DNA of 62,608 nucleotides, counting the filler, from Hausera hauseri (Eukaryota), in assembly GCA_046269625.1 (NCBI GenBank). It is 11 parts of 11 records of this genome, joined end to end, with 100 filler letters (N's around TTAATTAATTAA, not from the genome) between each part and the next. Parts side by side here need not be neighbours in the genome. Positions count along the whole stretch, not along the records: positions 39,059 to 47,556 come from JBJURY010623219.1; 10 more parts are not named here. One strand, written 5' to 3'. Position 1 is the first letter of the stretch. The number at the start of each line of letters is the position of its first letter. Below, one piece after another: positions 32,174-57,152 of this stretch. The position numbers were made by a program, and so were the translations under genes. The notes under the pieces were generated by a model. It was not told where the DNA came from. It did no database searches and saw nothing but the letters and a program-made list of their open reading frames with translations.

Positions 32174-35100
32174 ACCGTATATGGCGTCATTCCTAAGTCT
32201 GTGGGTAACACAGCTTCGCGTCCATACATAATAAACAATGGCGTAACTCCTGTTGCCGAATGTGGAGTGGTATTGATCGCAAATTTCGTTCCTTCTAAAA
32301 ATTTGTCCCAATCCTTTTGGTTCTTGGTTACTACTGTCGATTGTATGCGTATGACAGTTGCATTCATTCGCTCAATTATTTCATTACATTGTGGATGGCA
32401 TGCGGTGGTAGTTAACTACTCGATCTCAAATATTTTAGTAATTTTCTCAAATATTTCACTTGTGAAATTTCTTTTCCGATCTGTCAGTATTTGATCTGGA
32501 GGTCCATATCTACAAATAATTCTTCTTACTACAGCCTCTGCTAAAGTTTCTGCCTTTTGGTTAGTCAAAGCTACTAACTCGACAAAATGAGTTAGTCCAT
32601 TAATACAGGTTAAGATATATTTAGTATTCTGATGAGTCGTAGGGAGTGGTCCTACGATATCCATTGACATGGCCTGCATGGGTCTATCCGGTATGCTGAT
32701 TGGTTTCAGTTCCGCCATGTAATTTTTCGTCGTCTTCTATTTTGTCGCATATATTTTACAAGCACTAAACAAATTCTTTACATCAATGTAGATACTGTGT
32801 CAAAAGTATTTATTTAATATTCTTTCCTATGTCTTTTTCCATGACATGTGTCCTGCTAAATATGAGTCATGTCCGGCCATCAAAACCTCGGTTCACAACC
32901 CCCCTGGGATAACTACCAGCTTTCTTCCTTTTCGTTCGTAATATAGAATATCGTTACTGCTCTTATCGTTTAAGACACAGTATCTATGCCTGTGCCTCTG
33001 TAAATGTTTTTATAGTTGTCGTCCTTTTGGTATGATATCCCTTTTGGCAAATTCTATAATCTGCTGAATGATTTTATCCTTTTTCTGTTCCATTGAAATT
33101 TTGATTGCTTTGCCCAATGTTAAGGCGCGTTGGCGGTCTACTAATTCTTCGAGATGAGTCTTCATTGCAGTGATTGCATTTGTCTTAGTTTTCAATCTTG
33201 ATAGTGTGCCAGTATCTACGTGCTTATTTCCAGGCTTATACCGAAATTCGATATTATATTGAGAGATTTCAATCCATCGATTGAGTCTACATGCTGGGTT
33301 GTTTGCTCGTCCTTTCAAGGTCATGACTGCCTTATGATCGGTAACAGTTATAATTTTCTGACCGTAAACATAGACATTTAAGTGTCGTAGTGCTTCTTTT
33401 AAAGCTAATGTTTCTAACTCCGTAACGGAATAATTTTTCTCGGCTTTCTTCAACGAACATCCTCCATATGCAATTGGATGTTCGTTTTTCATTATTTCTG
33501 GTCTTAGTGAATATGAGGAAGGATACCATTTTGGCATCTGATCTTCGCGATCAATTTCCTCATTTTATCCTGACTTTTATTAAGCGGAGTAGTTAATCTT
33601 AGAGCCTTGGCTCTACCAATATCTTCGTCCTTCGTAACGATTGATTTATAGCGGCATAGCAGTTCATAAAAACAACAATAAGATTTGGGTGAAAATTTAG
33701 TTTCAACATGAAGCGGAAATTCGGCACATTTATAATATTTTTCTTCAATGGTTATTGGGGATACTTTATTTGTATGTCGTAGAGTAGTATTGGCGTGTTA
33801 TTTAACTGGAGTTGGCGCATTATTAACTGATCTGATTGGTACACGACTTGTCGTTACTCGGGTTAGTACATTACTGAATACGACATTTGGATTCAACGTT
33901 TCTTTTGCTTCAAAATATAGCCGTTGATCATTATGTCCAATTTATGCATAATGTAGCATTTCTATTCTTGGTGGAATATTTTCATCCACCTGAATGCATA
34001 CTTCTCCGGGTTTTTCTATCTTTCGTAATTTTTACTCCTCTTATTGGTTTAAGTTCTATCAATTTACCTGCATGCAAATCTACTGCCACAATCGTTAGTT
34101 CTCTTAATAAGTACATCCCAACACTACGTCATCTGTTAATTCCTTTATAGTTGCAAATTCATGGTGGAAAGATTGTCCCACAATGTGAACTTTAGGATTC
34201 CATTTAAACATTGGTCTCCGCGTCTGTCCCAAAGCTCCCATACTTCCAGGATCTTTCATTAACGGTGGATGTAATTTCCTCGCAACATCTGCGGTATTGA
34301 ATCATTTATGATATATGAAAGTTCAAAACCCGTATCGATTAAGGCAAACATCCCAGTCTTCGATACTGATTTTGACGAAGGGTGTTCTTTCTATTACGGT
34401 TCCTTAACAATTTGATGCAATTTTGGGACGTTTAAACGTTGATATTTTGTGGCAATTTATTCTGATTTCTGAAGGTTACTGCTTTCAGTCAGTTGTCTCA
34501 GTTCTCCATTTCGGTATAATTCATTGTTTTCGATGTTTGAATCTTCTGCTTCGTGAATACTTATTAGCGGTTCTCGATTATTTGAGTGCGTTTCTATATT
34601 TCGAAACGTTTGCATATTTTGATTTTCCCAGACTGTTCATCTAGTTTTTATAATTCGAGGTACTCTTGGAGAATATAATATTCTATGATGATCCACTGAC
34701 GTTCGGCGGTGAGACGCAGAATTTTCTCTTTTCTCGTGCATTTTCCCTAAAACTCCATGTTTTATTCGTTCGAAAGGATCTTCAAAACGAAATGATTTTC
34801 TATAGACTTTTGTCTTCTACGAACTCATCGACTATTTGTCACAATCTTCAGACTGGTGCTGTCGCATGTAACATGGGCAGCGGTGCCTTTATGACAGAAT
34901 ACGTCTTGTTCCTATTTACTTTGGAAACGATTTCTCCGTTAGGCTCGTCATCATCCGAATTATTTTTCCGCATTTTCTGCTTATGGAATTTTCGGCCATA
35001 CAAAAATATAGGTTTTCTTCGTCGTTTACGATTATGATAGATGGAATGTCGCTTTACGTCCGTTTTTCACCTGTTTTTTTCATAAGCTTTTAAAATTTTT

Positions 35101-37160
35101 CCCGTCGATGTTATAATTGCAGTTAGAATTTTACATGAAAATCCAGTTAACGTGAATATCTCGTATCCATTTATTACTGCTCAAGTTACGGTCTTGATTA
35201 ACCGCACTAAGTATATCGATAAAAATCGAGATGTGGCTTGTCCAAAAATTAAAAATCTTTCCCAAATTTTATATAGTATTTCAGTGGTTACTCGTTGATA
35301 GTTGTTCGCATCGAGTAACGATTCCAATTTTGCTTGGTAGCGAGTGTCGTCTACTACTGCGGCTATAGCTCGATTTAATTCGTGTTCGCTGGCGTGGAAA
35401 ACAGAGAAATTGCCTGAAAACTTCAACTTCTTTCGGCCTGTAAATACCTTTCGATGAGGTACCCAGGAATTTATAATCCGTTATTCCTCTCTGGAGATTA
35501 GTTCCCGTTAACGTGATTGGAGCGGCAGTAATGTCTCCATTTGGCAAACTTATCCAGTGGGTTTTACTACGTCTAAACATTGGTTCTCCTAAATTTACCT
35601 TACATTCTTTTAGGATTGTCGGTTGAGTTGCATTATCTAATAATACTCTAGTAAGTGGCATAGCTAACCGAGGGGTGTTTTTGGTATAAAACTGGGAGTT
35701 CTTGTGTGCATAGTTTTTCTTCAACATTAATCGGAACATCTCTTTTTTTCGCATTCATAGGTTAATAAGACTTCTCCGGTGACTCAGCCGAAAATTCCTT
35801 CGCTCATTGGGATTATCGGTGATGCTAATTTAGGGTTGGCATAAATAAGAGCCAATTTTGTTTCCATGTGTTATTTACAATCGTTCGTTATCAATTTTTG
35901 ATATAGTTTGGCTATTCTAACTTGTCCCTTGTAGTAGAAATAATTGTGTCTATTCTTGAGATAGTCTTCAATTTGGATGTCTTGCATTTGTATATTGTAG
36001 GTTAGTGCATTTATTTTCGTTTGTGCGACGAAAAATGCTTCATAATTCGTGTCAAACATCATTACTTCGCAGCGGGGTTAGAGGGTCATGAGGATCAGAG
36101 ATTAGTATGGTCGGTGTAGTGTTCTGCTACATCTTCGCCTGTCCTTGTATTGGTATAAAGCTTATTTACATATCGTTTACCGGTAGTCTCAATGAATTTT
36201 AATTTCATGATTTTAATGAAATTGCAGTTTCTTCCAGGTAGAGGTTCCCATATTATAACTGAGCTTCTAAATGTAAAAGCTCCATTCTGTAGGTGACATT
36301 TTTAGTTTTCGCTATACAATTTGGTAACGTTATGAAACATCAATTTCTGAGCTCGCAATTTGGTTTCAGAAATCTGCAATTACCACGTTTGCTTCTATTC
36401 TTTTGCCGGTGTCATACTCTTCACTATTACAGTTACCATTATGCACGTCTAGTTTTCCGACTGCTACTTTAAATGCCCTGATAATTTTATCTTATTGTAT
36501 TTCAAGTTCCATGTCATCCCACTGTAGTCTACCTGTTTCTTTGGCCTGTTTACAATGCTGGCGTTCCAGGATCATTCGGATTGGTGACGTGGTTGGTTAT
36601 ATTATCGATTAGTGTCCTTGTATTAGTACACAGTAGAAAACACTAAGGGATCATCGCAACATACATTTAATTCCATCCTGTAATATTAATTCTCGTTGTG
36701 GGCACAAGAAGTAATTTTTTTCTATCTCTAAGTTGTGCGGTCTGGCATCTTCACACATCTGCAGGTCCATTAGAGAGTATTTCTGACCGAGTTTAAATTG
36801 GTCGCAGTCATAGAATGTGACAGGACCTATCGGTTTTATTAACATCATCAGGATGAGCAAATTAATTAGACAATTAGATTTGATTCTCCGATTATTATTG
36901 GTTGACGTCAGATTTCATATTATATCTTCGAGTCTTATTAATACCGGTGGATAGTTTATCTTCCTTCTTTTCGAACAATTTTGACCAATGTATTTCCCAA
37001 GGCAATTTCTTTGCAGCTTTCCATGCTAAACTCGTGGCTTTGATGAATTTATTTTTTCGATGTGGGTTTGTCCTGATAGCTAAGTATTGCAATACTTTCG
37101 GTAATTCTTCTACTGTATATTTTACCATGATTTTCTCATTGACTTTCGTTGGTTAGGATG
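32174..37160 (-). mobile_element. Glycoprotein-bearing Gypsy element, copy 2 (RT deleted)
   Basis: Colinear with 39806-45740: helical domain, VTFYDC glycoprotein, TM, ALIDTG protease, RNaseH C-half, integrase SMDIVGPLP/ILTD. Confidence 0.9.
35030..36860 (-). pseudogene. Chuvirus-like class III fusion glycoprotein, copy 2
   Basis: PVTFYDC....GQKYSLMDLQMC, YYKGQV.I..LY, PRLAMPLTRVL, IWERFLIFGQ TM. Confidence 0.75.
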
Positions 37161-37199
37161 CTGTTTGAGTATGGGTAAAATGTACCTTCGGTCCCATCC

Positions 37200-38495
37200 C
37201 AGGAGGGGATAATCGATAAATCGATTAGCACATGTGCTAATCGATAGTGTACACCGAGCACTATCGGTCGGTAATGTGACAGGCAACGATGCCGTTAGGC
37301 ACCGTTGTTGTTCACACTGCACATTTCACTTATCGATCGCTGCACATTGCACTGTTGATCGAATCGATCGGGACAACGTGCTGTTCGATAGAGCACATTA
37401 GAACGCATCGATTGGTGCACTGTGCAGTTGCACTGCACATGTGCAAGTGTGCAAAAATCATTAATATATGATTTCCGATAATTTTAATATTGATTAGCAC
37501 CCGGCACCGGGTGCAATCGATAGCCAACACGATTCTCTATTTGAATGTGCAATTAGAATTTAAATCTATCGATTGGCTTTCGAAATGCCAACGGGGACTG
37601 TAGTGCATAGGCCTTTCCGCTATAAAATAAAAATCGATGTCACATGTCCTAGTAGGTAGTGCACTCGATACACTATTGATCGAGAAATGCTCATGGCTAA
37701 GGTGCCCCGGGCACCGTTGCCATGGCACTTTTTGACTTCACATATTTGTAGTTGTACGGCCTGGCATTGATAAAATCCAGCGGGACCAAATGCTTGTGAA
37801 TAGAGCATATCGAGATGCACTTTGATATGCACGGTGTAATGCACCTGCACATGTGCAAGTGTTCAAAAATTAATAATATCGGTTTTTCGATAATTCCCAT
37901 TTTGATGATTAGCACGTAACCGGGTGTGGTCGAACGCAAATACGATGCACTATACGAATGTTCAGTTAGAATTTAAATCTATCGATTCGTTTTCGAATAA
38001 TATCAACCCGAATTGCAACTGCGACCAAAGGTACATAGGTTTTATTTGCTCTAAGGAAGGAAAATCGATATTATATAGAGCGGGGATAGATAGGAAACCG
38101 AGTATGGATATCTTGAATATCGAGTCTAATGTTCGAAATTTGAAAAATTTCCCACTTGAATATGGAACTTTGAGCTTCTTGAAAAATTTGACTACGGAAT
38201 TCGATTCCCCATGTCCCAAAACCTCTAAATTCATTAAAATTATTCCATGAAAATGTGCTATATAGATATAAAATCAATATTTTGAATTAAGTAAAATGTG
38301 AATTTTAAGCTTAGTGAAGCGGAAATCGATAAATCTAATAGCGCATACGGATACGAACCCATATATGGCGAATCGGAATATGGCATCATATATTTGAAAT
38401 TGAACTTAAAAGTCGAATATTTAGCTATTCGAACTTGAATACTCGGTCATGTGTGCACTATTCGAAGAATATAATGACGTATTCCCCATGTGTGA
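37200..38495 (+). repeat. Non-coding repeat with internal ~410-bp diverged tandem duplication
   Basis: GCACATGTGCAAGTG..GATTAGCAC..TTAGAATTTAAATCTATCGATT occurs at ~37435-37575 and ~37847-37987. The distal part matches 14440-15100. Confidence 0.75.
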
Positions 38496-39285
38496 AACAC
38501 TTAAATTTGGCGCCTGACATTTAATTTATTTAATTTATTAAAACAAGTGCGTTATATTTGACATAAACATATAAATATAGAATATGATCTACATAATGGA
38601 CTTTATTGATAATCTAATATCTCATATGAACAAACGCACAGTGGATGATGCGCCCTATGAAGATGTTGCAGAATATACATGTTGCCAATCAGATTATGGA
38701 GAAAATGACGACGTGGCTGCAGCTATAAATCTGAAGATACTGAATTGTTTGAGGAATGTTGTGAAGATTGCCAACAAAGTGAATACGGCGATGACGAAAT
38801 TGAAATCAATATTATCTAGGAAGACGAAGAGGAAGTGACGATGAAAATTGATTATGCACATGTGTTAAAATGAATAATAATTAAAGATTGTTATTGTTGT
38901 TGTGTTAATAAAGTTGCTATAAACACACGTTGCTTTTTGAAATAAGAGACACATAAATNNNNNNNNNNNNNNNNNNNNNNNNNNNNNNNNNNNNNNNNNN
39001 NNTTAATTAATTAANNNNNNNNNNNNNNNNNNNNNNNNNNNNNNNNNNNNNNNNNNNNATTAAATGAAGTAGAAACGTGTCCGCAGAACAGGAGATTCAA
39101 TGTGGAGATGCTCCTGGATTCAGCGCTGAAAAAGATTTAACTGAACTAATTAACGTAAATATTACTGAAAGTTAAGACAACTTATTCCGACCGTAACTAA
39201 AATATCTAGTGAGAATACAATTTATAGTACGGTGCCGAAACTTTTGATAAGGAAATACGCTAAAATCTTGAGGGCTAAACCTAAT

Positions 39286-39512
39286 GTAATGATAAAAGTA
39301 ATGGTATCATCAGAGTGGATGGACGAAAAAGAATGTGAATTAACTATATATTCCTATGTAAGGGACGTAAGATAATGGTTATTAAATAATGGCGGAACAA
39401 ATGAGTTAAATTATAGATTTTACTTTAGAGGTAGAATACTCGACAATTTAGAACAATTAATAGATGTAGGGATTATCCCCGACGAAAAAAATCGAATAGT
39501 AGTAGTAATAGC
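39286..39512 (+). pseudogene. Ubiquitin-like domain (one internal stop; C-terminus falls in a 10-N gap)
   Basis: Manual translation VMIKVMVSSEWMDEKECELTIYSYVRDVR*WLLNNGGTNELNYRFYFRGRILDNLEQLIDVGIIPDEKNRIVVVI matches the Ubl pattern RLxFxGxxLxDxxxLxDxxI...IxVV. Confidence 0.65.
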
Positions 39513-40124
39513 NNNNNNNNNNAACGGATGAGGACAATGAACAATGACAAGAATTTAGTGCCGCTGAGTGAAATGATGGCCATTGTCCCAAAACAAAAAC
39601 GCCCAGTCGCTAGGCCTAAGAAGACACAAGAAGAAGTTGATTATAATGGAGAATTGATTAGAGTTAAGACAAATGTCGATTCCTACTTCCAGCACAATGA
39701 AGAATTAAACGAATTAATGAAGAATTTAATACGTGTTGTAAATTATTCAAGCCTTCGAGGTGACACATTAGATGGTAAAGAAAGACCATATTCAATGAAG
39801 CTAGAATGATGAAAAGCTCTCGTTTTAAATTATCGAAAAGTAACCTAACCGATGAATCGATAATAGAAAAGATCATTGTGGAAAACAAGAATGAAAAATT
39901 AAGAAAAGTATTACTGTATTTAGCTATTAAAATAAATCCCAATCGAGAAAATGAAATCAATAGAGCTATAAGCTTAGCTCGAAGAGTGGCGAGAAAGCTG
40001 CCCTGCGAAGTAAATTGGTCAAGACTGTTCGACAAGGAAAAAGACAAACAGACTAGTAATAGGCCCGAGGATGCGTTTCTTAATTTGGTAAAAACCGATA
40101 ATAATAACCAGAAAAACGAATTAA

Positions 40125-42018
40125 ATTGGTTAATCAGGTTACTCACCTTGATGATGCTAATAAAGCACATAGGCGCTGTGACCGTGTATGACTGCGATAA
40201 GTTTAAACTAGGGCCTAGATATTCCTTAATGGATTTGGAAGTGTGCGAAGATGTCAGGCCGCACAAGTTAGAAACGAGAGAGAAAAATTATTTTCTGTAC
40301 CAAAAACAAGAATTAATATCACTTTATGGAATGGAATGTATGCTGAGACGATATCGAAGCACTTTTCACTGTGGGTTAGTACACGGACATTCCTCAATAA
40401 TCAAAACAATACTCCTCTAATCCAAATGAACTTAGAACACCAGCACTGCAAACAGGCTAAGGAGACCGGAAGAGTACAATGGGATAATATTGAATTAAAA
40501 ATGCAACCTGGAAAGATAATTAGTGCATACAAAATAGTGGTCGGAAGGTTATATATGCATAGCGGGCATTGTTACGGAGCGGAATACGACACCGAAAAAG
40601 GATTACAAGCAAACGTGGTAGTCGTGGATTTCTACGAATTGGAGATACGATCACAGAAAGTAATGTTCCATAGTGTCACCAAGTAATACACCGAGAATCA
40701 CTAGTGTTATTTACAAGATGGAACCTGTGTTTTTAGAAAATCTGTTATAATATGGGAACCTCCCTATGGAAGAATCTGTAATTTTATCAAAATTAAGGAG
40801 ATAAATTTAATGAAACTACTGGAAAGCGATATGTGGATAAATCTGATACCAACTCAAGAACACGCGAAGACGTATTAAAACGCCCTACACCCACTATATT
40901 AGTCTCGGATCAGCATGAACTGAAATGTATTAAAAAGGAGATGATTTACCCTTGTGTTGTAGTGATGTTTGCTACTAATTATGAGGCATTCTTTATCTCC
41001 GAAACCGAGATAAATACGAAGACCTAAAAGTTGAAAACACAGGATATCCGGATTGAGGATTACTTGAAGAACAGAGATGATTACTTTTATTACAAAGGAC
41101 AAGTCGGAATAACTGAATTATATCACAAAATGATAACAAACGACTGTGAATCAGATACTGAGATCATGAGGACGAAACTGGCCTATATATACGCCAACCC
41201 AGAATTGGCTTCTCCAATAATTCCTAAGGGAGGGAATTTTCAGTCTGGTCACGGGCGACGTACTGCCAACCTATGAATGTGAAAAGAGAGATGTACCCAT
41301 CAACGTGGAAGAAAAATGTTGCATTCAGGAACTTCCCATTATTTACCAAAATATTCCGAGGTTAGCTACACCATTGACAAGAGTGTTACTCGATAAAGCT
41401 ACCCAACCTACCATTCTTAAAAATTGTAAGGCAAGCTTAGAAGAACCCATGTTTAGACAAAGTGAGACAGACTGGATCAGTTTGCCAAATAGGGGTATTA
41501 TTGCCGCTCCAAATAAATTGACAAGAACAAACCTCGTAAAAGGAATTACAGACGATAAATTTCAAGACACCTTGTTGAAAGGTATATACAAGCCGAAGGA
41601 AATTGAGGTTTTTAGACAATTCCTTGCCTTTCCGCGCCAACGAACACATGAGCTAAATTGAGCTATGGATTCTATTGTAGTCGATACACGATATCAGGCT
41701 AAATGGGAATCCATACTTAGCGTAAACCATTACCAGCGAGTAACCACAGAGATACTTTACAAAATTTGGGGAAGATTTTTGATATTTGGACAATCCGTGT
41801 CTGGATTCCTAGCGATATATTTTCTGATACAAATGAATAAGGCAGTCATCCCAGCAGTAATAAATGGGTACGAAATATTTACATTAACCGGATTTTCATG
41901 TAAAATACTGACTGCGATTGCAACGCCTTTTGGGAAATTCTTAAAAGCATACGAAGAAAATAGATGGGAATCGGACGTAGAACGCCATGTTGGCTACTAT
42001 AATCGTAAACAAAGATGA
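40125..42018 (+). pseudogene. Chuvirus-like class III fusion glycoprotein with internal signal peptide and C-terminal TM
   Basis: Signal WLIRLLTLMMLIKHIGA|VTVYDC; YSLMD..C; C.L.R..FHCG..HSS; CKQAKETG; GHCYG..Y..NVVV; CYLQDGTC..IW; CCIQELPI.Y; PLTRVL; TM WGRFLIFGQSVSGFLAIYFLI..INGY.I...GFS. The Cys spacing recalls chuvirus G. Confidence 0.78.
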
Positions 42019-42589
42019 AGGCCTATATTCTTGCAAAAGCGAAAATCTACAAAACCTATTACACGAAGAAATAATTCAGATGATGACGAGCCTAAGGGAG
42101 GAGAAGCACTTTTAGGAACAAATAGACATAAGATGTACTCTGTCGTTAAAGTGCCATTGCCTATGCTACCTCCTACCGCCCCATTTTACGACGATTGTGA
42201 TAAACGGTCCATGAGCTCGTATCAGACAGAAATTTATAAAAGGATAATCAATGTAGAAGACCCTTACGAAGGAACGAAACGATACGGAATCTTACGGATA
42301 ATGTGCTATCGGCAATCCATAAATGATCCCAGGATGTTGTATTCACCGAGAGAACCTAAAAATATCGATACTAGATCGACGGTTTGGGACAACCCGAAAT
42401 TAAAAACCTTCCAACATACTGAACTACATACTAACAATCGAAAGCCGCTAATTAGCACTCATGAAATGGAAGAATTTCACGTAGAAAAAAGAAGAGTTAA
42501 AACAGATATCGGAAAATATAGTATCCGCCCCAGAAGTACGATTGAACGGACACAAAATATCAGTGACTAAACGTTCGAAAGTAGCATCA

Positions 42590-45500
42590 AACTGTTTCGG
42601 AACAGTGATCGAAGGAAGACCTTTCGCCAAAATCATTATTGAGGATCGGGAAGTTTATGCGTTAATCGATACGGGTTCCGAGATGTCTTACATCAAAAAT
42701 GATTCAATATCTTAAACGCTAAGAAGACAGTTATATCCTCCGTCTACGAAAGATCCAGGTAGTACAGAAGCTTTTGGCCAAATGTCAAAACCAATGTTTA
42801 AATAGAACCCAGAAGTCCAACTAGTTTGGCAAACATTTCGACATGAATTTGCAATAATGGAACAATTAACTGACGATGTTGTTCTAGGATGCGATTTATT
42901 AAAAAGGCTACCAAATATAGCGATCGACTTACAAACAGTAAAATTAATAGAAATCACGCTCAATAAAGGCGTGAAAAACGCTAAGAATAGAAATTTTGGA
43001 GAAATATGGATAGCAGTTAACGAAAACATTCCACCAAGAAGAGAAATGATAATTTATGCCAAGATACAACAAGATGATGATCAGCCAGTATATTCGGAAC
43101 CAAGAGATACGTTAGATCCAAAAATATTACTCAGCAACGTATTAACAAGAGTGCACTCTGGTCGAGTACCAATCAGAATAGCTCACAACGCGCAAACTTC
43201 CGTTAAGCTCTATGCTTACACTACTCTAGGAGACATGTATAGAGTATCGTCGATAACGATCAAAGAAAAACCCTATAAATATGCTGAATTTCTACCTCAC
43301 GTCGAAACTAAGTTTCCACCCGAGTCTTATTGTCGATTTTATGAACTATTATGCCGATATAAATCGATTATTGCTAAGAGTGAAGAATATATCGGAAGAG
43401 TAATGCATTAAAACTGACTATTCCGCTCAAGGAAAAGACTGGTTCGAATGAAGAAATAGATTTGGAATACCAAAAGATGCCGAAATGGTACCCTCCACCA
43501 CATTCATTAAGGCCTGAGATAACAAAGGAAGTTGAACGAATGCTTAAGGCCGATATAATTAGCCCCAGTTACAGATCCTGGTACTCGCCTATCCTTATGG
43601 TTAAGAAGAAAGGCACTACGAAGCACCGATTTTGTATTGATTACAGAGCTCTAAATAATTTTATGATAAAGGATTCTTTTTCATTACCATCAGTAAAAGA
43701 GGCCCTGGATAGACTCTCAGGAGCAAAATGGTTTACTACTCTGGACTTACTATCCGGATAGTGGCAAGTGGAGATAGAAGATGAAGACCGTTATAAGGTA
43801 GCATTTAAAACTCACGATGGTGTTTACGAATTTAATGTTAAGCCGTTCGGTGTTACTACCGAACCCGTCATATTTACGAGAATAATGAACAAAATGTTAA
43901 TGGGATTGGATCATGCCTTTGTGTACTTAGATGACGTGATAATAGCATCGAGAATAGAAGAAGAACACTTAAAGGATATTGAACACACACTGATAAGTTT
44001 GGAACAAGACGGATTGAAGTTAAATCCGAAGAAATGCAAATGGGACCAAAATGCAGTATCTTACCTAGGTCATATAGTTGGGTAAGGAGAATCGAAACCA
44101 GATAAATCGTTCTTAAACAAAATATCCGATTGTATGGAACCACAAAACCAGAAAGAGTTAAGACATTGGTTAGGACTCTGTGGTTATTATGCAACCTATG
44201 TACCAGATAAATCAAAAATTAATGCACCTTTATACCGTCTACTTAAGAAAGGAATTAAATAGTAATGGACAGATGTCGAACAAAAAGCTTTCGACGAGAT
44301 GAAGTAGATATTAACAAGCGAACCCGTTTTGCGATACCCCGACTTTAACTTACCCTTCATAATCAAAATCAACGCCAGTAAAGAAGGCATCGGGTACGAA
44401 TTAGCACAGAAAAGAGAAGATGAAAAATTAGAACATCCGATTGCTTATGGAGGACGTTCCTTGAAGAAGGCCGAGAAAAATATACCGTTATCGAACTGGA
44501 AACTCTAGCCGTAAAAGAAGCACTGCGTCATTTCAACGTTTACATATATGAACAGAGAATTATAATTGTTACTGATCATAAAGCCGTTACGACCTTAAAG
44601 AGCCGAGCAAATAATCCGACATGCAGACTTAATAGATGGATCGAAGGAATCTCCAGATATAATATTGAATTTCAGTATAAGCCAGGGAACAAACATGTAG
44701 ACGCTGATGCACTATCGACATTAAAGACTAAAACAAGCGCAATTACAGTAATGAAGAAAAGTCAACTTGAGGAAATAATAGACTGTCAACGCGCGTTAAC
44801 GATAGATAAGGCAATTAAAATTTCAACAGAACAAAGAAAGAATAAGGTCATCCAGCAGATTATAGAATTTGCTAAAAAGAATGCCATACCAAGAGGACGA
44901 CAGTTAAAGAAACATTTACACAGACACGGACACAAATACTGCGTCCTACATGACGGAAATGAAGGAGACATTTTATATTACGAACGAAAAGGAAAGATGT
45001 TGATAGTTATCCCAAAGAGTTTGCGAACCGAAGTGCTGATGTCAGAACATGACTCATACTTAGCCGGACACATGTCCTGGAAGAAAACATTAAAAAGAAT
45101 AATGACTAAATACTTTTAGCCGAGTATCTATATTGATGTAAAAAATTGGGTGAACGCTTGTGAAGTATGTGCAACTAAGCAAAAGAAAACAAAAAATTAC
45201 ATGGCCGAATTAAAACCAATTGAGGTACCTGATAGACCCATGCAAGCCATGTCGATAAATATTGTAGGACCTCTTTCTACGACTGATACGAACAATAAGT
45301 ATATCTTAACGTGTATCAATCGCCTAACTCATTTTGTCGAGTTGATAGCATTAATAGATCAAAAGGCTGAAACCTTAGCAGAAGCCGTTGTAAGAAAAAT
45401 TATTTGCCGATACGGGCTTCCAGACCAGATACTTACACATCGGGGAAGAAATTTTACCAGTGAACTTTTTGAGAAGATTAGCAAAATATTTAAAATCGAA

Positions 45501-46103
45501 AGATTGACAACTACTGCATATCATCCTCAATGTAATGGGATGGTGGAACGAATGAACGCAACCGTCATACGTATATTATCGACAGTAGTAGCAAAAGATC
45601 AAAAAGATTGGGATGAATTTCTAGAAGGAACTCAATTTGCAATTAATACCACACCACATCCAGCAACAGGATTTACGCCATTTTTTATGACGTATGGACG
45701 TGAAGCCGTGTTGCCCATGATATTAGGAATGACGCAATATACAGTCTATTCCGATTATTTAGAACAAAATTTCGCAGAAGTATTACAAACGCGATTGCAA
45801 AAGTGTTGGGAGATCGCTAAGGAATTATCTCAAGAATATCAAGAACAGTTTAAAAGGCAATATGACAAGAAGGCAAAACCACATGATATAGAACAAGGAA
45901 ATTAGGTTTATGTGCATTATCCAGTAGCCAAGAAAGGCACCTCATTGAAACTGACCCGTACAGGTAGAGAACCGTACGAAGTTAGCAGAATTACGCCGAC
46001 CACAGTAAACATTAACAAAAACGAAAAGGAAGAAGTCGTGTCAATACAAAGAGTCGTCAAGACAGAAATACGACCCAATAAACGTTACAACTTACGCTCA
46101 TAA
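42590..46103 (+). pseudogene. pol: Ty3/Gypsy pol (PR-RT-RH-IN)
   Basis: DTG at 42668-42676; RFCIDYRALN, TTLDLLSG and YLDD at 43924-43935; HPIAYGG, TDHKA; GH..CEVC; TTAYHPQCNGMVER; RYNLR end. Confidence 0.95.
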
Positions 46104-47549
46104 GAAGTAAAAACTTCCCCAATAATTACCAGACCAATATCATACGTTCAAATAGTCTTAGCGTTATCGCTAATTGCTTCTTATATTCCAAGAACACAAG
46201 CTCAATGGTGGCACGACGAGTCGACGCTAGAAGATATATACGGAATTTGGAAGAGCGGATCAAAATCGGAAGTTGTTAAAACGGAAAATAAACCAACGGC
46301 CGAAGAAATCTAAAGACATGAAGATATTAAATTATTACAATCAATGACAATTCATTATTGTTCGCCAAATTCTGTATGTGTTGGATTTAAAACTGAAAAA
46401 CCACATTACGATTTCGGAAAATTTCAAATTGCCTTACTTGACGTAACCGCAAAATAAGCGAAAAATTGTAATTTTGAATCTGGAGACTATATGCAATGTT
46501 GCGACATAGATTTTGGACGCATGTATAACCTCACCTATCGTCTATACTTACCAGACTCATCCGAAGTTTATATTGAAACGAAACCACAATTTCAATTAGT
46601 CGTCCCTGCATGGAACCGACATCACGGAGTAAAACCTAACAAAATGTTACGATCCACTGACCCAGATATAAGAATATTAAACACAAATATCCGCAGAATC
46701 TCAGTAAATAGGGAAAAACAATGCATTCAAGTCGATGCTCAAACAGGATTAACTCTCAGTCAGGAAATTAGTACTACATTCAAAGCAGCAGTTGGACCGA
46801 CCCCGAAAATAGGATACTGTTCTATTCGTGCAGGCGTGCAACATCCGTGTTGTAAAATACTCGCGAACCAAGAGTTCAAAATAAAATTCAACTTATACGA
46901 GGTACGACCAAATAAACCAAGTATACAACTACGAACGTACTATCCAGAAAATAGAATTTGGAAAATTTCAGTAGAAACAACCACGAAAAGACCGACTACT
47001 CGAGTTGGTGCCATTGCGAAAACCGCTACGTCGGGCAGCGTGCCTAAGAGAGAACTAGGAAATATACCTATTAAATATTCGGCGCATCAACTTAAGATTG
47101 TGTTGTTTGTGGAGGGGAAACAAAATTACTATATACACATAAGTTGTCGAACGACATATAATAATCAAATTGTAACATTACTTAAAAACACCTACCAAAC
47201 GGAGTGCAATTTACTAAAATCACGATCTGAATACGTAATACAAGTACATGCGGAGAATAAACAGACCCAAACGATTACATTACATACCTTAGCTAAAATT
47301 CACGCGAAATCGCATACATACGAGGATGTAGACGATGAAACTACAACGTCATTTACTACTTGATCACCACTAGGATTAACTGCCTTACAAATTGCATCTA
47401 TTGCAGTACTGTCAACGTTTATTCTCATTTTATTAATTGCGATTTTTCGACTAGTCACCAAAAACTGTCATTCTAAGCGCCATAAAAATGCAAAATGGGA
47501 ATTAAGGGATTTGGAAACCCCTATTGACCCGTATGATAAAATAACATGA
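46104..47549 (+). pseudogene. Type I membrane protein with FN3-like domains, same frame as integrase
   Basis: Signal-like IVLALSLIASYIPRTQA, FN3-like LLKSRSEYVIQVHAEN and DIDFGRMYNLTYR, TM IASIAVLSTFILILLIAIF, tail ending YDKIT*. Three internal stops, no frameshift. Confidence 0.6.
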
Positions 47550-47656
47550 CAATTACNNNNNNNNNNNNNNNNNNNNNNNNNNNNNNNNNNNNNNNNNNNN
47601 TTAATTAATTAANNNNNNNNNNNNNNNNNNNNNNNNNNNNNNNNNNNNNNNNNNNN

Positions 47657-50600
47657 GTCAACCAATTCGGATGTCCACTGGATTGGCTGATGTTTTTTGC
47701 CGCTTAGGTGTGCGAATGGTGCTGTCAATTCGGAGCAATATGGTACAGATTTATGTACAAAGTGTAGTGTGCCAAGGAAACTGCGCATTTCGGTGGTTGT
47801 ACGTAGCAGCTGGATATTTTTAAGAGCTTCGACTCGGTTTGATTGCGGGGAATGACAGTCTGGTGAGATAACGTGGTTTAAAAAGTTGATGCTTTTTTGA
47901 AGAAATGGCATTTGTCAAAATTGACTTGGAGATTATGGTGGCTAGGACGTTGGAATATTCCGCGAAGGTGTTCCTTGTGTTGTTTGGACGAAGATAAAGC
48001 GACTAGGATATCATCGATATAATGGTGTGCAAACGGGAAATCTTAAAGAATTGAATCAATGTGTCGCTGAAAAGTCTGCGGCTTTCCGCAAACCGAATGG
48101 CATAAACAGGTATTCATAGAGACCAAAAGGAGTGCTACCGGTATTTGATGGTATAATTTAGCTATATTAATGGTCGAATAAATGGTGGTTGAATTAAGAC
48201 GATGCAAGATATCCTTGATGAGTGGTAAAAGGTACGCATCCATGATAGTTAAGTTGTTCCGCTGTCGGTAGTCACCGCATGGTCTAAAATTACCGTCTTT
48301 TTTTTTACAACGTGTAAAGGTGATGACCAAGGAGATTTGGAATAACGTACTATGCCGGAACGTTCTAGTTCAAGAAATTCGGCTCCTACGGCTTGTCTAC
48401 AACGAGGTGACAGAGGCCGTAACTTTTGGCGTATTGGTCGTTGATGCTGTGTAACTATATGGTGTAAAGTACTGTTTGCGGAGTAAACGTACACTCCTTT
48501 TGAAGTACGCGTGGACATGATGTGTTGACGAATTGTTTTAAAATTGTAGGTAACTGTGAGAAATTTGGTGGGAGCGAGGACGTCTTACCAATAGCTTTGG
48601 CTGTATCAGTAAAAGTAAAAATTTGGACGTTGTTTGGTAGTCGAGAATGAAGTGGTATTCGATGCAGGATGGTAGTATTGAAGATGGTATTTTAGTTTGT
48701 AGTTTTATCGAATGATTTGGCAGTGGCAGCAGAATCATTTTTATCTCTGTGCAAACCTCAATCATCAATAACGTTGTTCTTTAGTGATTTAAAACAAGAT
48801 GCCATGGTTGTAAAAAGAATGTTTGTTGAACAATTTTTTTAATATCGGCTTTTGAGCTGAATTCACCCGTACGACAGCCAAAATTGTATTGTCGTGATCA
48901 AATCGCTCCTTATTGCGACCATTTGTTAAGCAGGGTTGTTTGCAATCTACAAGGAGGTTAGAGTACAAAAGAAAATCGGATCCTAAAATGACTGTTTGGA
49001 CATTTGCGACTGTAAATGTTTAGTGGAACGTTTGAGTAAATTTCGGAAGGATAAAAGAAAGCCTACATGTACCGAAAACATGTAGCGGTTGTCCGGAGGC
49101 TGTAAATAAAGGTTTAATTTTGAATAAAGTGTGTTGAGTTGGAAAAGTGAGGTGTAGTAAAGAAATCGTTGCGCCTGAATCGATGAGAAAATCTGTGTTG
49201 AGCTGTCGGTGCGATGGTGGAGGCTGTTAATGTGAACACGGCGAAAGAAATTTTTTGGCTATTAGGAAGTGAAAAGTGGCCTTCGCCAGTGCTTGCCGAA
49301 AACTCTTGAGGCGAAGTCAGTTCTTTGAAAACGGGGAACCTGAGCGGCTGTTAGAAAAGAAAGTTGTGCGTTCGTCATTTGCATGGTGGGATTTGTTTTT
49401 AAACGTGAAACCTGGAATGCACTTACATGCATTATGTCTGAATTTTGCACGATATATGCAAATGACGTTGTCCGTATGGTATTTTTGATCATAAAATTTG
49501 CACCCTAAGTGGCATTTTTGCGCGTTGATATCAAACTTACCATGGTAATAGCAAATCAGTGATCGTCCAGGTAAAGGTGAACGACCATGAGATACTGAAC
49601 GGTTACGGTCACGTATGAAACCCTCACGTCAAGTCAATGAGATCTCGTTCAGTTTATTGTTGATATTATTTATTGTTCTTTGTAGGGCCGCATTTTCGGC
49701 TCGTAGTTGATTTAACTGCTGTTTCATTGTAACGTTGTTGGTAGTAACGGCTGAAGAAATGACTGGTTGAGTGTGTGCATTCAAAACCTCGTATGTCTTG
49801 TCTGCCAGTTCAGCCAATTTATCAAGTGTTGTCGATTCTTCGACGACAGTAAGTAAGGCCCTAATTGGTATGGGCAATGCGTTCAGGAAGTAGCGTCGTA
49901 AAAGATCAGCGTTGTGTTGTTTAGTCACGCCAAGTATTTGAAGTTGTACAAGGGAAGTTCTGAAGAAATCAGATGGTTTTTGCGTCCCCATAGCATTGTC
50001 GTTGAAGAAACAATTAATTATTAAGTCCATAGATGGTTCAGTAAGCTTTAAAACGGAGTTGTAAAGATGGGTGTATGGATCAGTTTTTTAGAAGATATCT
50101 AACAAATCATAAATGACCGTTTTTACAGTTGTCGGTAAAAGACAAAGCAGGTTATAAGCTTTAGTTAGCGGATCAGTAATGTTGTTAGACTGCAGCCAAA
50201 GTTTGTGGATATTAAACCAGGTCTTGCTGGACTGTTCGTGGTCGATAAAATACTCTGTGCACTGAAAAGGAGTGTGTTTTGCTGGCGAGGTTAAAGAAGT
50301 ATAACTTCTGAAAGAAGATGGCGTGGTAACGGTCGACGATTTTTGGTTAAACGTGAAATGTGATGCTTTGGAAGTAGTTTTGTTAGTGGTGTTAATGGTA
50401 GGTGAAAAGTCCATTCCACCACGTACGCGTATATGTACGTGAATGATGGTATAATAAGTTGAAGGCACAGAAAGGTTACGAAGGTTGGCATTAGTTACTG
50501 GTAGATTATTGTATGTAAAATAAAAGTCAAATGTTGGCGACGTGTAGTGCGTAGTTATGTAAGTAGGATGCGTCTATGAAATGTGTTATTCTGTGTGTCA

Positions 50601-51849: not shown

Positions 51850-53170
51850 AGCCGACGGAACTAAATTGATTCTCGTAACAAAAGTATATGGTTTGTCCAA
51901 TTTCGCAGTTTCAGAAACTATGAAATAAATCACCCTACCCTCTGAAACTCATATATCTTACGTATCTCGTATTCTTCCACTGAAAACCCGATGGACAGGG
52001 CTGATTTGAAAATAGAAAGTCCTCCAAAGTTTTGAATAAAATTTACCACATGTGTACACATTACTTTTCGTGTTTCTTGGCAATTGGCATACCAATTTGT
52101 ATCACAGACTTCAGGCATTGGTTGGCCAGCAGCCATATGCTTTGTGATTGGCAATTATACTTCAAAGACAATGGCAAGTAGAGCATAGAAATTATCTAAT
52201 CTTGAACACAGTTGCTGATAACGAGTTTATTTTCAGCACAGCCTTTATACATTTCTACGGAAAAATCCATACAATTTTGTCCAAATGCTATAAAAATATC
52301 TGGTATCCTTTCCACTTGGGATAATGTCTGGATTTCTCGGGGAAGCTGAACGCAATAGTTTGCCAAAGAAAGTGTTGCAGTAAAAAACATACCAAGTAGT
52401 GAGTTGAGTTTGTTATTTTCATTCAGAATCGACTGAGAAAGGGCCTTAACAGATTCTAAAATAGTCTTGCAGCGCACTCAAAGAACCATGATACCTATTA
52501 ACAGACAAGGAATTAACCCCAGTCGATTCTGACAAACATCTGAACTGAATGAAATGTATAATCAAAGTTTGCTTTAAAACAATATTGAATCATTGAAAAT
52601 CATCGACAGAGAAATAAGTTTGAATGTCATTAAATAACAGGAAATATTTCAAATAGAATTGCAAAGAATTTCTGAGATGGAAGCCCAGTTATCTTTCCTT
52701 TACTCTTAAGCCTCTCCGGTAAATTAGCAGAAACCGCCAAACTAATCGATTCAGTGCCAATCTTTGTTCAAGAGTACCAAACCATAAATTTGAGGTTTTC
52801 TTGCGGTTTTGCAATGTAATTATTAAAAATTCACTGCAAGTAGCAACTGCGTGTTTTTCAATGAATTTTCAGATATTTCCTGATTTGAAAGTAATGATGA
52901 TGTTTCAGTGATGTCAAGCAAAAGTTTCCAGGCTCGTGAAAAATCATCTAATTTCAAAGGAACTGTTTGTTTGTTGGGAAACATTTGGGCCACTCCAACC
53001 AAACTTAAAACCTGAATTTCTGCCCACTGTTTTGCTACTGTATCTTTGCTGTGATGGATTAAGAGATTTTCATTGTTCTTTTTTTCTGAAGCTACTGCAC
53101 AAAATTCTTTTATTTTGTCAAGTAAGGGAAACAAAACCTTCCACATTACTATGGACCAAGAATATTTTGA
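51850..53170 (-). pseudogene. MON2: MON2 homolog C-terminal region (fragmented exons or pseudogene)
   Basis: WKVLFPLLD..LLIHHSKDTVAKQWAEIQVLSLVGVAQMF..DFSRAW.LLLD matches MON2. Confidence 0.78.
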
Positions 53171-53274
53171 AGTACCCCTCCATGTACATCAAGAGTATTA
53201 AAAGTGTCTGACCTGCATTAACATACATAAAATTTGACCGTTTAAATTTATGAAATGTTTCAATGGCATTCAAT

Positions 53275-53958: not shown

Positions 53959-54190
53959 AAAAATTTGTTAGCATGAATCATGTCTTCCAGCCATCGTTTG
54001 GCCTCATCTGTAAATGATCCATCAAATTTCCGTAGTGAGGCATTGTAGTATTTCCGGAAGTGTTTGTGATAGTCTGGAGGACTTGAATTACCTTGTCCCA
54101 TTTCCTGGTTGGATCGCCAGTAAAGAAGAATTTGCTCGGCAAAGTCGGCGGATCGAAATCCTGAATCTCACTTGGTTTCTTGTCGCACAT
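53959..54190 (-). pseudogene. Probable retrotransposon Gag N-terminal fragment
   Basis: LRKFDGSFTDEAKRWLEDM resembles the capsid F-x-G...WL motif. Confidence 0.45.
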
Positions 54191-54301
54191 AATTTAAATT
54201 GAATTCCAGAGAGTTTTTAAAATGTATTTATTTTATATCCAATATTTAAACAAATTAAAAATAAATAATAACTTTGCTTATTATTTATTTTTGTTGCCCC
54301 A

Positions 54302-54631
54302 TTACTGTACTTTTCCATTTTTTGGTACAACACTGATTTTGTCTTCTTTTGTACTCTTATAAAAGTCGCTCGCACAAATAAAAGAGGTTCTGGTCCACAG
54401 TTTATTATTTTCAAATAGTTGACATGGTTCGTTTGCAGTGACCCGGTGAATTGTGCTGTAATGTATTTTCATATTGTGTTTCAATGTCACCGGTATGTAG
54501 GGAAAGATAAATTCCGTCAGTGCAACCTCTTGTTGTCCGGATAAATCTATCGGATTGTCCCAATCTACGAGGTATTGATTGGCTGAATTGTTCGGACGAA
54601 TTATCGGACAACTGTTGCTCGGTAACCCCAT
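54302..54631 (-). pseudogene. Penton-like protein 2, N-terminal part
   Basis: LPSNSCP..RPNNSANQYLVDWDNPIDLSGQQEVALTEF. Confidence 0.78.
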
Positions 54632-54660
54632 GTAAAGACAAAGATGATGATGCAGTTTGT

Positions 54661-55667
54661 TTATCGTCGACGTCGAAAATGTAGCTTCAAATGTGTTGTT
54701 GACCCGAACAGAAATTTAATTGGTTTTCAAAATTCATCTAGCATATACACTGAAATACTGCGCACAACATTTTGAGACAACGATAAATACATTAGCCGGA
54801 TGATATTAAGGTGAGCTGTTTCGCCGGATGTTTTGTACGTGTCAGAATACATGTTCAGTGATATCTGTTAAAGTGTCGATTCGATGAAATGCTCTATGGA
54901 CTCATGGTTTGTATTTAGCGACATTAGCTCTACCGCCACCGATTTGACCGAATTCACATTTTGTAAAACCCAGATTACGTGCCAGTAGTTCATCAAAGGT
55001 AAAATATGTAACATTATCATGTAGTATAAACGAAATATCACCATCGGCGTTTAATTCAAATGTCTTTAGAACCAATTCAGCCACTTCCCTGATAAGTACA
55101 CACAATTCCACTTCCGATTCCAACAGTAAACCATATCCTGTAGTATACGAGTAAAAGGTTGATTTTGTCATTCGCCAATTCACCGTAATATCGGTTTTCA
55201 TGGGTTTGGAAAAGTTCAATTTTCTTTTACGAACTATGACATGTCCAACTAGCTGCAAACCTTTCAAGCGTAAACTGACAGATTGAAAACCCAATGCCTG
55301 AGCAAGGCTAATGATTTAAATTACAATTCAACTGAATACCGGTGTGAATTCAATTGAATATAAAAATATACATTTTGAAATATTATCGCGTATAATTGTG
55401 AACATGAAATCACTTAGAGTCGTCATTTAACTGTAAACGACTTGAAGCGGGAGATTTCTTCAGTAGAATAAAGTAAATACCTCTGTTCTCACATATTGAC
55501 ATTGCTGAAAATGTAAATGTGAATTCCATCAGATTTACTTCCCAGACTCTCTGGCGTAAATCGAGCTATTGGTCCAAGTACATGATAAATCGTTCAGCCC
55601 TATCGTTGTTGTTGTTGTCATGTTGTAATAATGATCTGCTACTGTCGTGTACCATGTAAATACTCAT
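54661..55667 (-). pseudogene. Penton-like protein 1
   Basis: Homologous to 18642-19662 (GFQSV..LKGLQL; LHFRRRR*). Confidence 0.72.
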
Positions 55668-56720
55668 TCAGTCTGCGATACAAATATCCAACTCGGTGTA
55701 GTGTATCCGTGCCACTTGACGAGATATTGTTTATTCGAACCTTTGCCGCCTGAATATATAATTTCCTATACGTCAGGTTTCTCAGGCAATATCTGCAGAT
55801 CCTGTTCGTAGAATTTACCACGTATTTCCTCACCAGTTTCATCATCTTCTAAAACATATATGACAGGTGTTCATTTTGTGCTGATTGCAGAAATTTGAAA
55901 AACCTCATCGCTCCAGTTCTGATTGAAATTCTTGATGAATGGCGTTGAACTCAATTTCAAAATGCGTACATAATCACCCATTTTGTATTTAGGACGACGT
56001 TTAATTGTGTCTTGTCGGTTTTGATAAAACCAAATGTTAAAATCATCAGTTACATCGACCAGCCGTCATCCGTTGATTCCACAATGTGTCAAATGATTGT
56101 ATGCATGAATAATATCCGGTAATACATCTACTCAGCGCTTATTGCCTTGTTTCTCAAAGAATTTGTTTAGTCGACTGCGTAGGATTCGATTAAATCGTTC
56201 AACGAGTGCAGACTTTTATTGAGAAAACACAAAGTAGTAGTTTAGATCGAACCGGTTTAAGACCGATACGACATGAAAGTTGTAGAATTATTTACCTTAA
56301 TCAGTTTGTACATGCTTCGACATTGGTTGCTGGTTTATTAATGTGTGAACAGCGTCGGCAATTTCTTTACCGAATTTTGATTTCACGGCCATTGCACGTG
56401 CAAAAGGACTAAACAAATCAATACATTTCAGCACGTACCCATACCCATCGTTAATGCTCGTCTACGGGATCATTTCCATTAGATCCATTTGCCATACGTT
56501 GTTTACGCCTGCAGCACGGTGTGCACGAGTTGGAAACCGTTTTCATATTGGTTTGTTCAGGCTGTATGCTAACTGTTTCCCAAGCCACTATTGGGTTTGT
56601 AGTCGATTCTGTTTCACAGTCTTTGCCAGTTTGTTGACAACAGTATACGCAACAGGACGACGCGGATCTAACCATACGCCCATTGCTGTTGTTGATGTCG
56701 TTTTCGTTTGTATTATAATA
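55660..56720 (-). pseudogene. Polinton rve integrase with chromodomain
   Basis: WQMDLMEMIP, ERFNRIL, YLVKWHGYTTPSW. Confidence 0.85.
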
Positions 56721-56819
56721 GTTCGAACGGAAAGTGAATGAAATATTCGGTTAAGTGGGTCAAAATGATGAAAACCATGCACCCATGCCGCTAAAACAAC
56801 ATATACTTACATTCACTGT

Positions 56820-57152
56820 TTATACTAAACTGCTGTTGCCACCGATGATACCACCTAGTAATTATATGACAACCGGTGCAATTGAGCCAATTAATCCTCC
56901 GTTTTGCTGGTACATGACTTCGCGTTTCAGTCTTTTACTACCAGCGTTGGAAAGATTAATGAATCGTTTTCTATACTATAGTAAATTCCGATTTCCACTA
57001 TCAGTGTCTACGTGACCCATAACAATATTGCACAAAATTTCCATAAAACCGTCCACTACAAATTGCAGGAATGATTGTAGCATGTTTCGTTTATGTCTCG
57101 ACGGTGCTTTAAGCAAAGCAATAAAGTACGGTTGACTACATTTGAAATGCAT
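56820..57152 (-). pseudogene. Small virion protein (QxGG motif)
   Basis: EILCNIV..KREVMYQQNGGLIG, homologous to 20835-21150. Confidence 0.65.

Follow-up and report, generated by a model that had tools for sequence, protein, structure and literature searches.

What does a retrotransposon carry downstream of pol when its fusion glycoprotein is encoded upstream of pol? This question is raised by a decayed Ty3/gypsy long terminal repeat (LTR) retrotransposon in the genome of Hausera hauseri (assembly GCA_046269625.1), in which a coding frame follows the integrase. The window, i.e. the whole stretch of DNA that was analysed (62,608 nt, filler included), consisted of 11 contigs of 4–8.5 kb each, separated by 100-nt N-spacers that hold a six-frame stop linker (TTAATTAATTAA). 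A preliminary description of the contig JBJURY010623219.1 had proposed that the element encodes two surface proteins, a fusogen on the 5′ side and a candidate receptor-binding or decoy protein with fibronectin type III (FN3)-like repeats on the 3′ side. On balance, we favour the explanation that the downstream frame is the decayed accessory open reading frame (ORF3) of a Ty3/gypsy element with a gB/chuvirus-type fusogen before pol.

A coding frame for a membrane protein downstream of pol

After the sequence RYNLRS-TAA at the end of the integrase, the same frame continued, with no Met, into a signal-like stretch, a transmembrane (TM) segment and a tail with YDKI (47532–47543), all as first described. 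It ended with YDKIT and a TGA (47547–47549), 7 nt before the end of the contig. The frame had been taken as a coding continuation, which was correct, but it was not open: three internal stops (TAA 46311, TAA 46455 and TGA 47361) had been left unmentioned. These three stops in 481 codons compare with a mean of 33 and a minimum of 17 in 2000 base shuffles, and with 31 and 33 stops in the other forward frames. Because the stops were far below those of the shuffles and the other frames, and because the frame aligned with an intact protein of 479 aa, the 3′ ORF is coding and not a product of chance. With these three stops, the last of which (TGA 47361) lies just before the TM segment, this copy cannot make the protein.

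The protein encoded by the 3′ ORF of the window (P0001) had a sole relative among the 5043 candidates of a word-index search. This relative, P0002 (479 aa), is a single-member ENA protein that is intact and 34% identical to P0001 over 93%. A C-terminal fragment of 189 aa (P0003) was 44% identical to the window protein, and identity among the three versions was 34–47%. A profile of P0001 and P0002 found nothing beyond P0002 and P0003 among 1.84 billion representatives, and tblastn with P0001–P0003 detected no second copy of the 3′ ORF in the window. P0002 was intronless and formed one frame colinear with the window ORF, with all three window stops inside the aligned coding sequence.

The product was recognised as a type I membrane protein with a signal peptide, a single TM helix and a short basic tail, in agreement with the preliminary description. 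The signal peptide and the TM helix were called by hydropathy, conservation and model. The signal segment was identical to P0002 at 22 of 26 positions, versus 140 of 442 elsewhere, a contrast reached in none of 5000 permutations (85% identity in the signal peptide against approximately 33% in the ectodomain). Of the 11 Cys residues of the ectodomain, 10 were common to P0001 and P0002. The TM helix was followed by a Cys conserved in all three proteins and by a basic stop-transfer cluster; the tail comprised 30 residues with a palmitoylation-like juxtamembrane Cys. We infer that a fixed signal peptide beside a diverged ectodomain would fit a fast-changing, host-facing protein, and the modelled anatomy would most simply be that of a host-facing surface protein.

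Two further observations concern the ends of the ORF. The signal segment (46131–46208) may stand out in conservation because the ectodomain diversifies, because of recombination or because an RNA signal overlaps it, and the 3′ arm of a stem predicted at the pol stop lies inside the signal-segment codons. At the other end, the sequence TGA-CAATTA (47547–47555) has a tobacco mosaic virus-type read-through context, found at only 3 of 469 stop triplets on this contig strand. The TG of this final TGA may equally begin a 3′ LTR, and the C-termini of P0001–P0003 coincide.

Fold of the ectodomain

Two AlphaFold2 models were obtained from shallow alignments, one led by P0002 (predicted local distance difference test, pLDDT, 53.7) and one of the window ectodomain with X at the stop (pLDDT 57.6). 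Both models contained three seven-stranded beta-sandwiches. The best Foldseek matches were three tandem FN3 domains (fibronectin 10–12; E 1.7e-9 and 2.3e-9), and FN3 proteins also topped the viral structure library. Per-domain alignment with VIA-align gave Z values of 7–8.8 at a root-mean-square deviation (rmsd) of 2.2–3, a middling score at which FN3 was tied with other Ig-like sandwiches, and no specific FN3 family stood out in the VIA lists. Domain 1, whose Cys residues are conserved in P0002, aligned with the Fn3 domain of ROBO1 at Z 7.5 (rmsd 2.5 over 83 residues). FN3 proteins were also returned by the Atlas (0.85–0.87), as leads only.

FN3 folds are characterised by a conserved core Trp and a tyrosine corner. 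As in FN3 surface proteins such as fibronectin, contactin, gp130 and receptor phosphatases, the modelled sandwiches here are tandem and seven-stranded and have tyrosine-corner-like words, which were found in all three domains of both full-length proteins. In contrast to FN3 proteins, they had no conserved Trp in the early strands of the domains, and domains 1 and 2 contained the pattern C-x(30–32)-C-x(10)-CC. None of the three proteins passed the cut-off of Pfam fn3 (PF00041); the best score was 13 bits against a cut-off of 25 (E 0.12, domain 3 of P0003). When PDB sequences were searched with the alignment, no FN3 chain appeared among matches with E values of up to 10. The FN3-like repeats of the preliminary description were thus recovered by structure prediction as three seven-stranded sandwiches, but with a subthreshold Pfam score and ties with Ig-like folds. 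The models favour an FN3-like ectodomain, while membership in PF00041 is unsupported by sequence.

Domains 1 and 2 had a common Cys register and were also similar in hhalign (E 0.013), where their score of 17.9 was reached by none of 40 column shuffles, the best of which scored 14.6; domain 2 is probably a tandem duplicate of domain 1. Domain 3 was identical to P0003 at 38 of 80 positions.

Origin, expression and possible function of the 3′ ORF

The 3′ ORF is very probably an accessory gene borne by the element. On the strand of pol, homology to its relatives began less than 30 nt past the pol stop; neither an LTR nor an untranslated gap intervened, and the ORF had no introns across 1.4 kb. 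Its stop density was similar to that of pol (3/481 versus 11/1194 codons; Fisher p 0.77). Codon usage of the ORF correlated best with that of this pol (r 0.82) and of the pol of a sister copy described below (r 0.78), versus r 0.68 for the element's own, partly misframed env pieces and r 0.02–0.67 for seven further sets of element ORFs in the window. The AT skew was +0.19 in the ORF and +0.22 in pol, and −0.03 to +0.12 in the seven other sets. This common strand bias, codon usage and decay rate therefore point to a probably element-borne accessory ORF. Three diverged intronless versions and no other relative would also be less expected of a conserved host receptor than of a small mobile family.

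In live members of the family, the alignment makes it quite likely that the 3′ ORF has its own start. The Met of P0002 sits exactly where similarity begins, with one of nine residues identical before it and the conserved signal segment after it, and read-through or a polyprotein is therefore not needed. The loss of the start in the window copy is unremarkable, because decay is estimated at 0.12–0.18 substitutions per codon (12–14 stops in 1675 codons). By analogy with the rotifer ORF3s described below, the simplest reading is that the gene is expressed on its own, probably from a spliced or subgenomic RNA, for which an acceptor-like TTACCAG at 46126–46132 is a candidate splice site; the in-frame position after the integrase would be a one-in-three coincidence. 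The preliminary description had instead regarded the shared frame as meaningful and considered, besides splicing, read-through of the TAA or a polyprotein in which the TAA is a lesion. In such a recoding reading, the protein would be made fused to Pol, in the second case within a single Gag-Env-Pol-ORF3 polyprotein cut by signal peptidase. The missing Met of the window copy would suit such recoding, as would the position of the env signal segment, which is likewise internal to a longer frame (39779–40420), the frequency of lesion stops in this copy (14/1675 codons) and a 10-bp stem starting at the stop (z −4.0). Furthermore, no stop separates the integrase from a signal-like segment in two fetched pol fragments (P0014 and P0043), and env of the Burro elements is described as in frame between gag and pol (PMC6431247). 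However, P0002 is otherwise intact and was called alone, its Met opening the signal segment, the nine residues between stop and signal are unconserved, and a lesion would fall within the 10-codon junction with a chance of about 8%. The stem contains the stop itself, and folding of comparable strength was predicted in 3 of 157 contig windows. To our knowledge, TAA-G is not among the leaky stop contexts, and we know of no read-through signal that TAA-GAAGTA matches, the word not being of the CARYYA type. An RNA signal at the pol stop (z −3.4 to −4.0) was rejected as evidence, since the value of −4.0 came from one of four hand-picked windows and 3 of 157 contig windows reached −3 or lower; Rfam gave no match at the pol stop. 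Nothing on read-through into env was contained in the part of PMC5009743 consulted. Neither the significance of the shared frame nor read-through of the stop was upheld, and recoding in either form appears improbable.

If the 3′ ORF is an accessory gene with its own start, live copies would express it separately, most likely from a subgenomic (spliced) RNA. The product would be a type I protein with a cleaved signal peptide, three disulphide-bonded FN3-like sandwiches and one TM helix, its ectodomain consisting of two duplicated domains, a Thr/Ser-rich linker and a third domain. The terminal YxxI would sort the protein to the budding membrane. It would bring the particle or the producing cell to the target cell, and the gB-type protein would then fuse. 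We tentatively suggest such a role as an adhesion or attachment partner at the cell or particle surface, which is plausible, if somewhat short of an even chance. The fuller proposal of two-protein entry in a Ty3/gypsy lineage, with a gB-type fusogen before pol and, in the env slot, a captured three-domain FN3-like attachment protein of diversifying ectodomain and fixed signal peptide, is more doubtful. About equally doubtful is a captured and eroded receptor ectodomain that would act as an element-borne decoy of host signalling or as an immune or adhesion modulator. Such a protein could bind a host ligand or block re-entry of related elements, and YxxI would clear the complex by endocytosis. 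Poxvirus decoy receptors with FN3 folds exist, and the fold matches included cytokine-receptor and adhesion ectodomains (gp130, IL20R2, IFNAR and IFNGR); among the Atlas results, which are leads only, were an IL-11-receptor-like cluster and herpesvirus US8 (0.84–0.85). The short tail without a signalling domain and the conserved signal peptide with a variable ectodomain would also agree with a decoy. However, the fold matches were tied among all FN3 proteins (4–17% identity) and therefore name no ligand. Neither P0001 nor P0002 contained the word WSxWS, a feature of class I cytokine receptors, and the searches revealed no sequence link to any host receptor.

Several points weigh against the explanation as an element-borne attachment gene. 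No 3′ LTR is visible past the 3′ ORF, because the contig stops at 47556. No second locus with the gene beside pol was found, the sister copy ending short of it. Integrase searches among proteins of 30–979 aa (54 matches in 5625 candidates of 307–979 aa; 48 in 258 candidates of 30–306 aa) gave a closest match of 43% identity over at least 150 aa; this blank is no evidence against linkage, because proteins longer than 979 aa lay outside the search. Prokaryotic genome scans yielded 98 and 27 pattern matches, none of them confirmed, and a phage scan was empty, as is expected for a eukaryotic element. The two models are weak and tie FN3 with generic Ig-like sandwiches, and Atlas recognition was low (1885). 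The start of P0002 was set by a gene caller, without DNA context. Attachment can be performed by class III fusogens themselves, as by rhabdovirus G, so that no partner is required. Finally, the fraction of A at four-fold sites was 0.43, versus 0.42 in three host-like fragments (p 1.0, 128 sites), so that the ORF is distinct in composition from other elements without being clearly distinct from the host. This likeness, the single locus linking the ORF to pol, the lack of a visible LTR and the frequency of FN3 type I proteins among host genes would suit an adjacent dead host sequence (a retrocopy or intronless gene) at the end of a truncated element, or a one-off cargo without a role in the element. 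Chance would then have to account for a truncation that left the homology gapless, on the same strand and less than 30 nt from the pol stop. Decay rate and strand bias match those of pol, the ORF lacks introns across its 1.4 kb, and no conserved host family was found for the three diverged versions. A host origin is thus considered to have a small probability.

Structure of the element and its sister copy

The element copy was an internal fragment that filled its contig (Table 1), which has a 10-N gap at 39513–39522. No LTR was detected within the contig (39059–47556), which starts inside coding sequence. The contig ends matched nothing else in the window, and no clear polypurine tract was seen before the contig end.

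Table 1. Features of the contig with the element and of the sister copy; positions are those of the window.
Feature	Position	Strand	Basis or remark
Contig with internal fragment of decayed Ty3/gypsy LTR retrotransposon	39059..47556	+	N-spacer limits, domain order
Broken coding stretch 5′ of env	39059..40129	+	in frame with env signal segment from 39779; possibly gag end
Chuvirus/gB-type (class III) fusion glycoprotein	40130..42018	+	PF24664; frameshifted, stops
183-aa frame between env and protease	42019..42570	+	ORF; no Pfam match; env tail/linker or very short gag
Aspartic protease	42614..42910	+	PF00077 E 6.9e-5; DTG motif
Reverse transcriptase, one stop	43600..44079	+	PF00078 E 2.7e-29; YLDD
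RNase H, two frames	44266..44660	+	PF17919 E 1.7e-17, PF17917 E 5.4e-14
Integrase (H2C2, core, C-terminal part), two internal stops	45009..46100	+	PF17921 E 4.1e-17, PF00665 E 1.6e-8
TAA ending pol	46101..46103	+	most likely natural stop
3′ accessory ORF, type I membrane protein, pseudogene here	46104..47549	+	three internal stops, no Met before signal segment
Signal peptide, predicted cleavage after TQA	46131..46202	+	hydropathy 1.7
Beta-sandwich domain 1 (FN3-like)	46335..46601	+	C-x(30)-C-x(10)-CC; seven strands, both models
Beta-sandwich domain 2 (FN3-like)	46689..46970	+	Cys register as domain 1
Thr/Ser-rich mucin-like linker	46971..47051	+	pLDDT <50 in both models; Thr run common to three proteins
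Beta-sandwich domain 3 (FN3-like)	47052..47285	+	one conserved Cys pair, tyrosine-corner-like word
Transmembrane helix	47391..47456	+	Kyte–Doolittle peak 2.9; pLDDT 74–86 in P0002 model
Terminal YxxI-T sorting-like motif	47532..47546	+	YDKIT, YDRIT, YGRIT ending 3/3 proteins
Sister copy (env, protease, RNase H, most of integrase)	32174..37168	−	nt identity, separate contig 32174–38958

The fusogen proposed 5′ of pol was confirmed as a chuvirus/gB-type glycoprotein: five pieces of it matched PF24664 (Monjiviricetes_fusion) in the order of the profile (5–97, 104–182, 257–358, 412–497 and 519–622 of 653; best E 1.1e-14). Hydropathy indicated a signal-like segment from 40130 and hydrophobic C-terminal stretches from 41806 and 41875; the signal segment is covered by the ORF 39779–40420. 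Of the two proposed surface proteins, the 5′ fusogen is thus present, and the 3′ type I FN3-like membrane protein is probably the element's own, in a copy that is dead. Between the contig start and env lay approximately 1 kb of broken coding sequence, which from 39833 had about 70% nt identity to the sister copy. No Pfam match to gag was found 5′ of env or between env and protease, both stretches being broken or cut off, and there was no usable Atlas match either. After the hydrophobic stretches of env, a PTAP-like word (LPPTAPF, 42121–42150; LHATAP in the sister copy) is possibly a late-domain-like motif.

The pol order of protease, reverse transcriptase (RT), RNase H and integrase found with Pfam is that of Ty3/gypsy elements (Metaviridae). 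BEL/Pao elements have the same order, but the RT_RNaseH and Integrase_H2C2 models and all 102 fetched relatives pointed to a gypsy-type element; the class was set by these Pfam models and pol relatives. Pol contained 11 in-frame stops in 1194 codons and its frame changed twice, and the whole copy is therefore dead; for this copy, the count was 14 in-frame stops per 1675 codons, with frame changes in addition. Of the three catalytic positions of the integrase, two were non-acidic in this copy and acidic in the sister copy. The integrase end RYNLRS (46083–46100) resembles YNLR, the core of the peptide with which foamy-virus Gag binds chromatin (PMC6021111). Y-x-L-R words occurred 20–50 residues from the end in 6 of the 102 fetched pol fragments and are a possible nucleosome-tethering motif. 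The C-terminal 60 residues of P0014 and P0043 comprise integrase, an acidic tail and the signal-like segment, which may be a sign of Pol-Env polyproteins in other lineages.

The sister copy aligned with 39833–43522 and 44420–45745 in two blocks (68.5% and 77.6% nt identity) and also has the PF24664 fusogen 5′ of pol. Its RNase H–integrase region was 75% identical at the aa level, with differences of 0.17, 0.12 and 0.41 by codon position; as judged from the alignment, this third-position excess is a mark of past purifying selection. The sister copy stops inside the integrase at the equivalent of 45745. A clean deletion of approximately 900 nt (33492, minus strand) has removed its whole RT (the equivalent of 43523–44419), and it is possibly a non-autonomous derivative. 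Upstream of the sister homology, a non-coding repeat (37170–38958) is present in two copies approximately 412 nt apart; it also occurs at 14367–15102 (80% identity) on the Polinton-like contig 11614–15924.

The rest of the window contained Polinton-like pieces (protein-primed polymerase B, A32 ATPase and integrase), LTR elements and host-like Mon2, peroxiredoxin and MATH fragments. With its mostly decayed mobile elements, the window resembles a virus-like bin taken from the genome of a eukaryote, probably of an invertebrate. Among the Polinton-like pieces (7187–9525, 11712–13256, 59090–60322, 16025–22040 and 53959–58465) were three genes for protein-primed polymerase B, of which two had an endonuclease VII-like zinc motif; A32 ATPase and integrase were present on two contigs related to each other (75% identity). 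Two more decayed gypsy-type elements without env (27014–30500, plus strand; 47657–50600, minus strand) adjoined the peroxiredoxin (31073–31290) and Mon2 (52826–53188) fragments. A PRORP-like nuclease match (E 2.4e-5, 24559–25386) was located on a contig without other assignment, and a MATH domain (E 5e-26, 62059–62523) at the end of a polymerase B contig.

Comparison with known elements

The following comparisons rest on the consulted parts of the cited papers. An env gene before pol that encodes a gB-type protein is described in nematodes, bryozoans and flatworms (PMC13524379), and a mononegavirus-like env in frame between gag and pol in Burro, the giant gypsy-like elements of planarians (PMC6431247); the 5′ position of the fusogen is therefore not new. 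The closest likeness is to the GAG-ENV-POL errantiviruses with HSV/gB-type Env (PMC13524379; HSV, herpes simplex virus), in which, as here, a chuvirus/gB glycoprotein precedes protease, RT, RNase H and integrase; PF24664 is equated with the HSV/gB class through that paper's statement on Chuviridae-like glycoproteins. In those elements, gag precedes env, whereas here no gag was recognised in the broken coding sequence ahead of env. They are often multicopy, more than 98% identical and intact, whereas this copy is decayed and has a sister without RT that is 68–78% identical, a mismatch that concerns this copy and not its lineage. The ENV-GAG-POL elements of oribatid mites carry an F-type Env (PMC13524379), in contrast to the gB-type here. 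The main text of PMC13524379, to whose scope other ORF arrangements do not belong, mentions no extra 3′ surface-protein ORF, and the words 'fibronectin' and 'immunoglobulin' do not occur in it. Of the published GAG-ENV-POL elements, 5/6 from bryozoans and 4/16 from nematodes had a gap of at least 1450 nt between the last ORF and the 3′ LTR. These counts cover rows with LTR calls (6/10 bryozoan, 16/36 nematode, 27/35 listed molluscan and 9/12 odonate) and take the 3000-nt extension at face value. As a discriminator, such room after pol was rejected, since gaps of at least 1450 nt were also present in 12/27 molluscan GAG-POL-ENV controls (0/9 odonate).

Burro elements resemble the element in having captured host-like domains and accessory ORFs, but they are far larger, their cargo is intracellular (MATH, BIR, BCL2-like, ankyrin and SUMO-like) and lies before pol, and no FN3 membrane protein is named (PMC6431247). 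In LTR elements, ORF3s usually form spliced units of their own, and those of bdelloid rotifers are, like the one here, family-specific and 3′ of pol; they are spliced separately, and some are TM proteins (PMC5408684). The rotifer products include GDSL esterases, DEDDy nucleases, coiled-coil proteins and small TM proteins, or they are the sole env; no FN3 protein is described among them and, unlike here, none accompanies a second, upstream fusogen (PMC5408684). In the MDG1 group of Drosophila, sORF2 is an accessory membrane protein for cell-to-cell transmission of an LTR retrotransposon; it is short, fusogen-like and replaces Env, whereas the 480-aa protein with a three-domain ectodomain found here stands besides Env (PMC11952523). 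Troyka (PMC12440569) was rejected as a match, as it is without env. Among the listings viewed in searches of the open-access literature, no FN3-like type I protein occupied the env slot of an element with an upstream fusogen, and the word 'fibronectin' was absent from the four papers probed for it. LTR retrotransposons are already known to have captured host domains, TM accessory proteins and ORF3s. The 3′ protein family, of three sequences, has no description in the searched collections.

Little is established about the choice of target cells by env-bearing retrotransposons of invertebrates, and the catalogue of the env-before-pol group is very recent. If the 3′ ORF were a neighbouring host relic, the locus would be an ordinary dead element. 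As a second, structurally recognisable surface protein, the 3′ product, of which P0002 is an intact natural version, is a candidate for cell targeting or interference with host signals. It makes the content of the stretch from the pol stop to the 3′ LTR in GAG-ENV-POL elements a simple question for published genomes. If two-protein entry holds true, binding and fusion would be split inside a retrotransposon as they are in herpesviruses and paramyxoviruses, which may explain the upstream move of env in GAG-ENV-POL elements and the 1–2 kb that follow pol in some of them.

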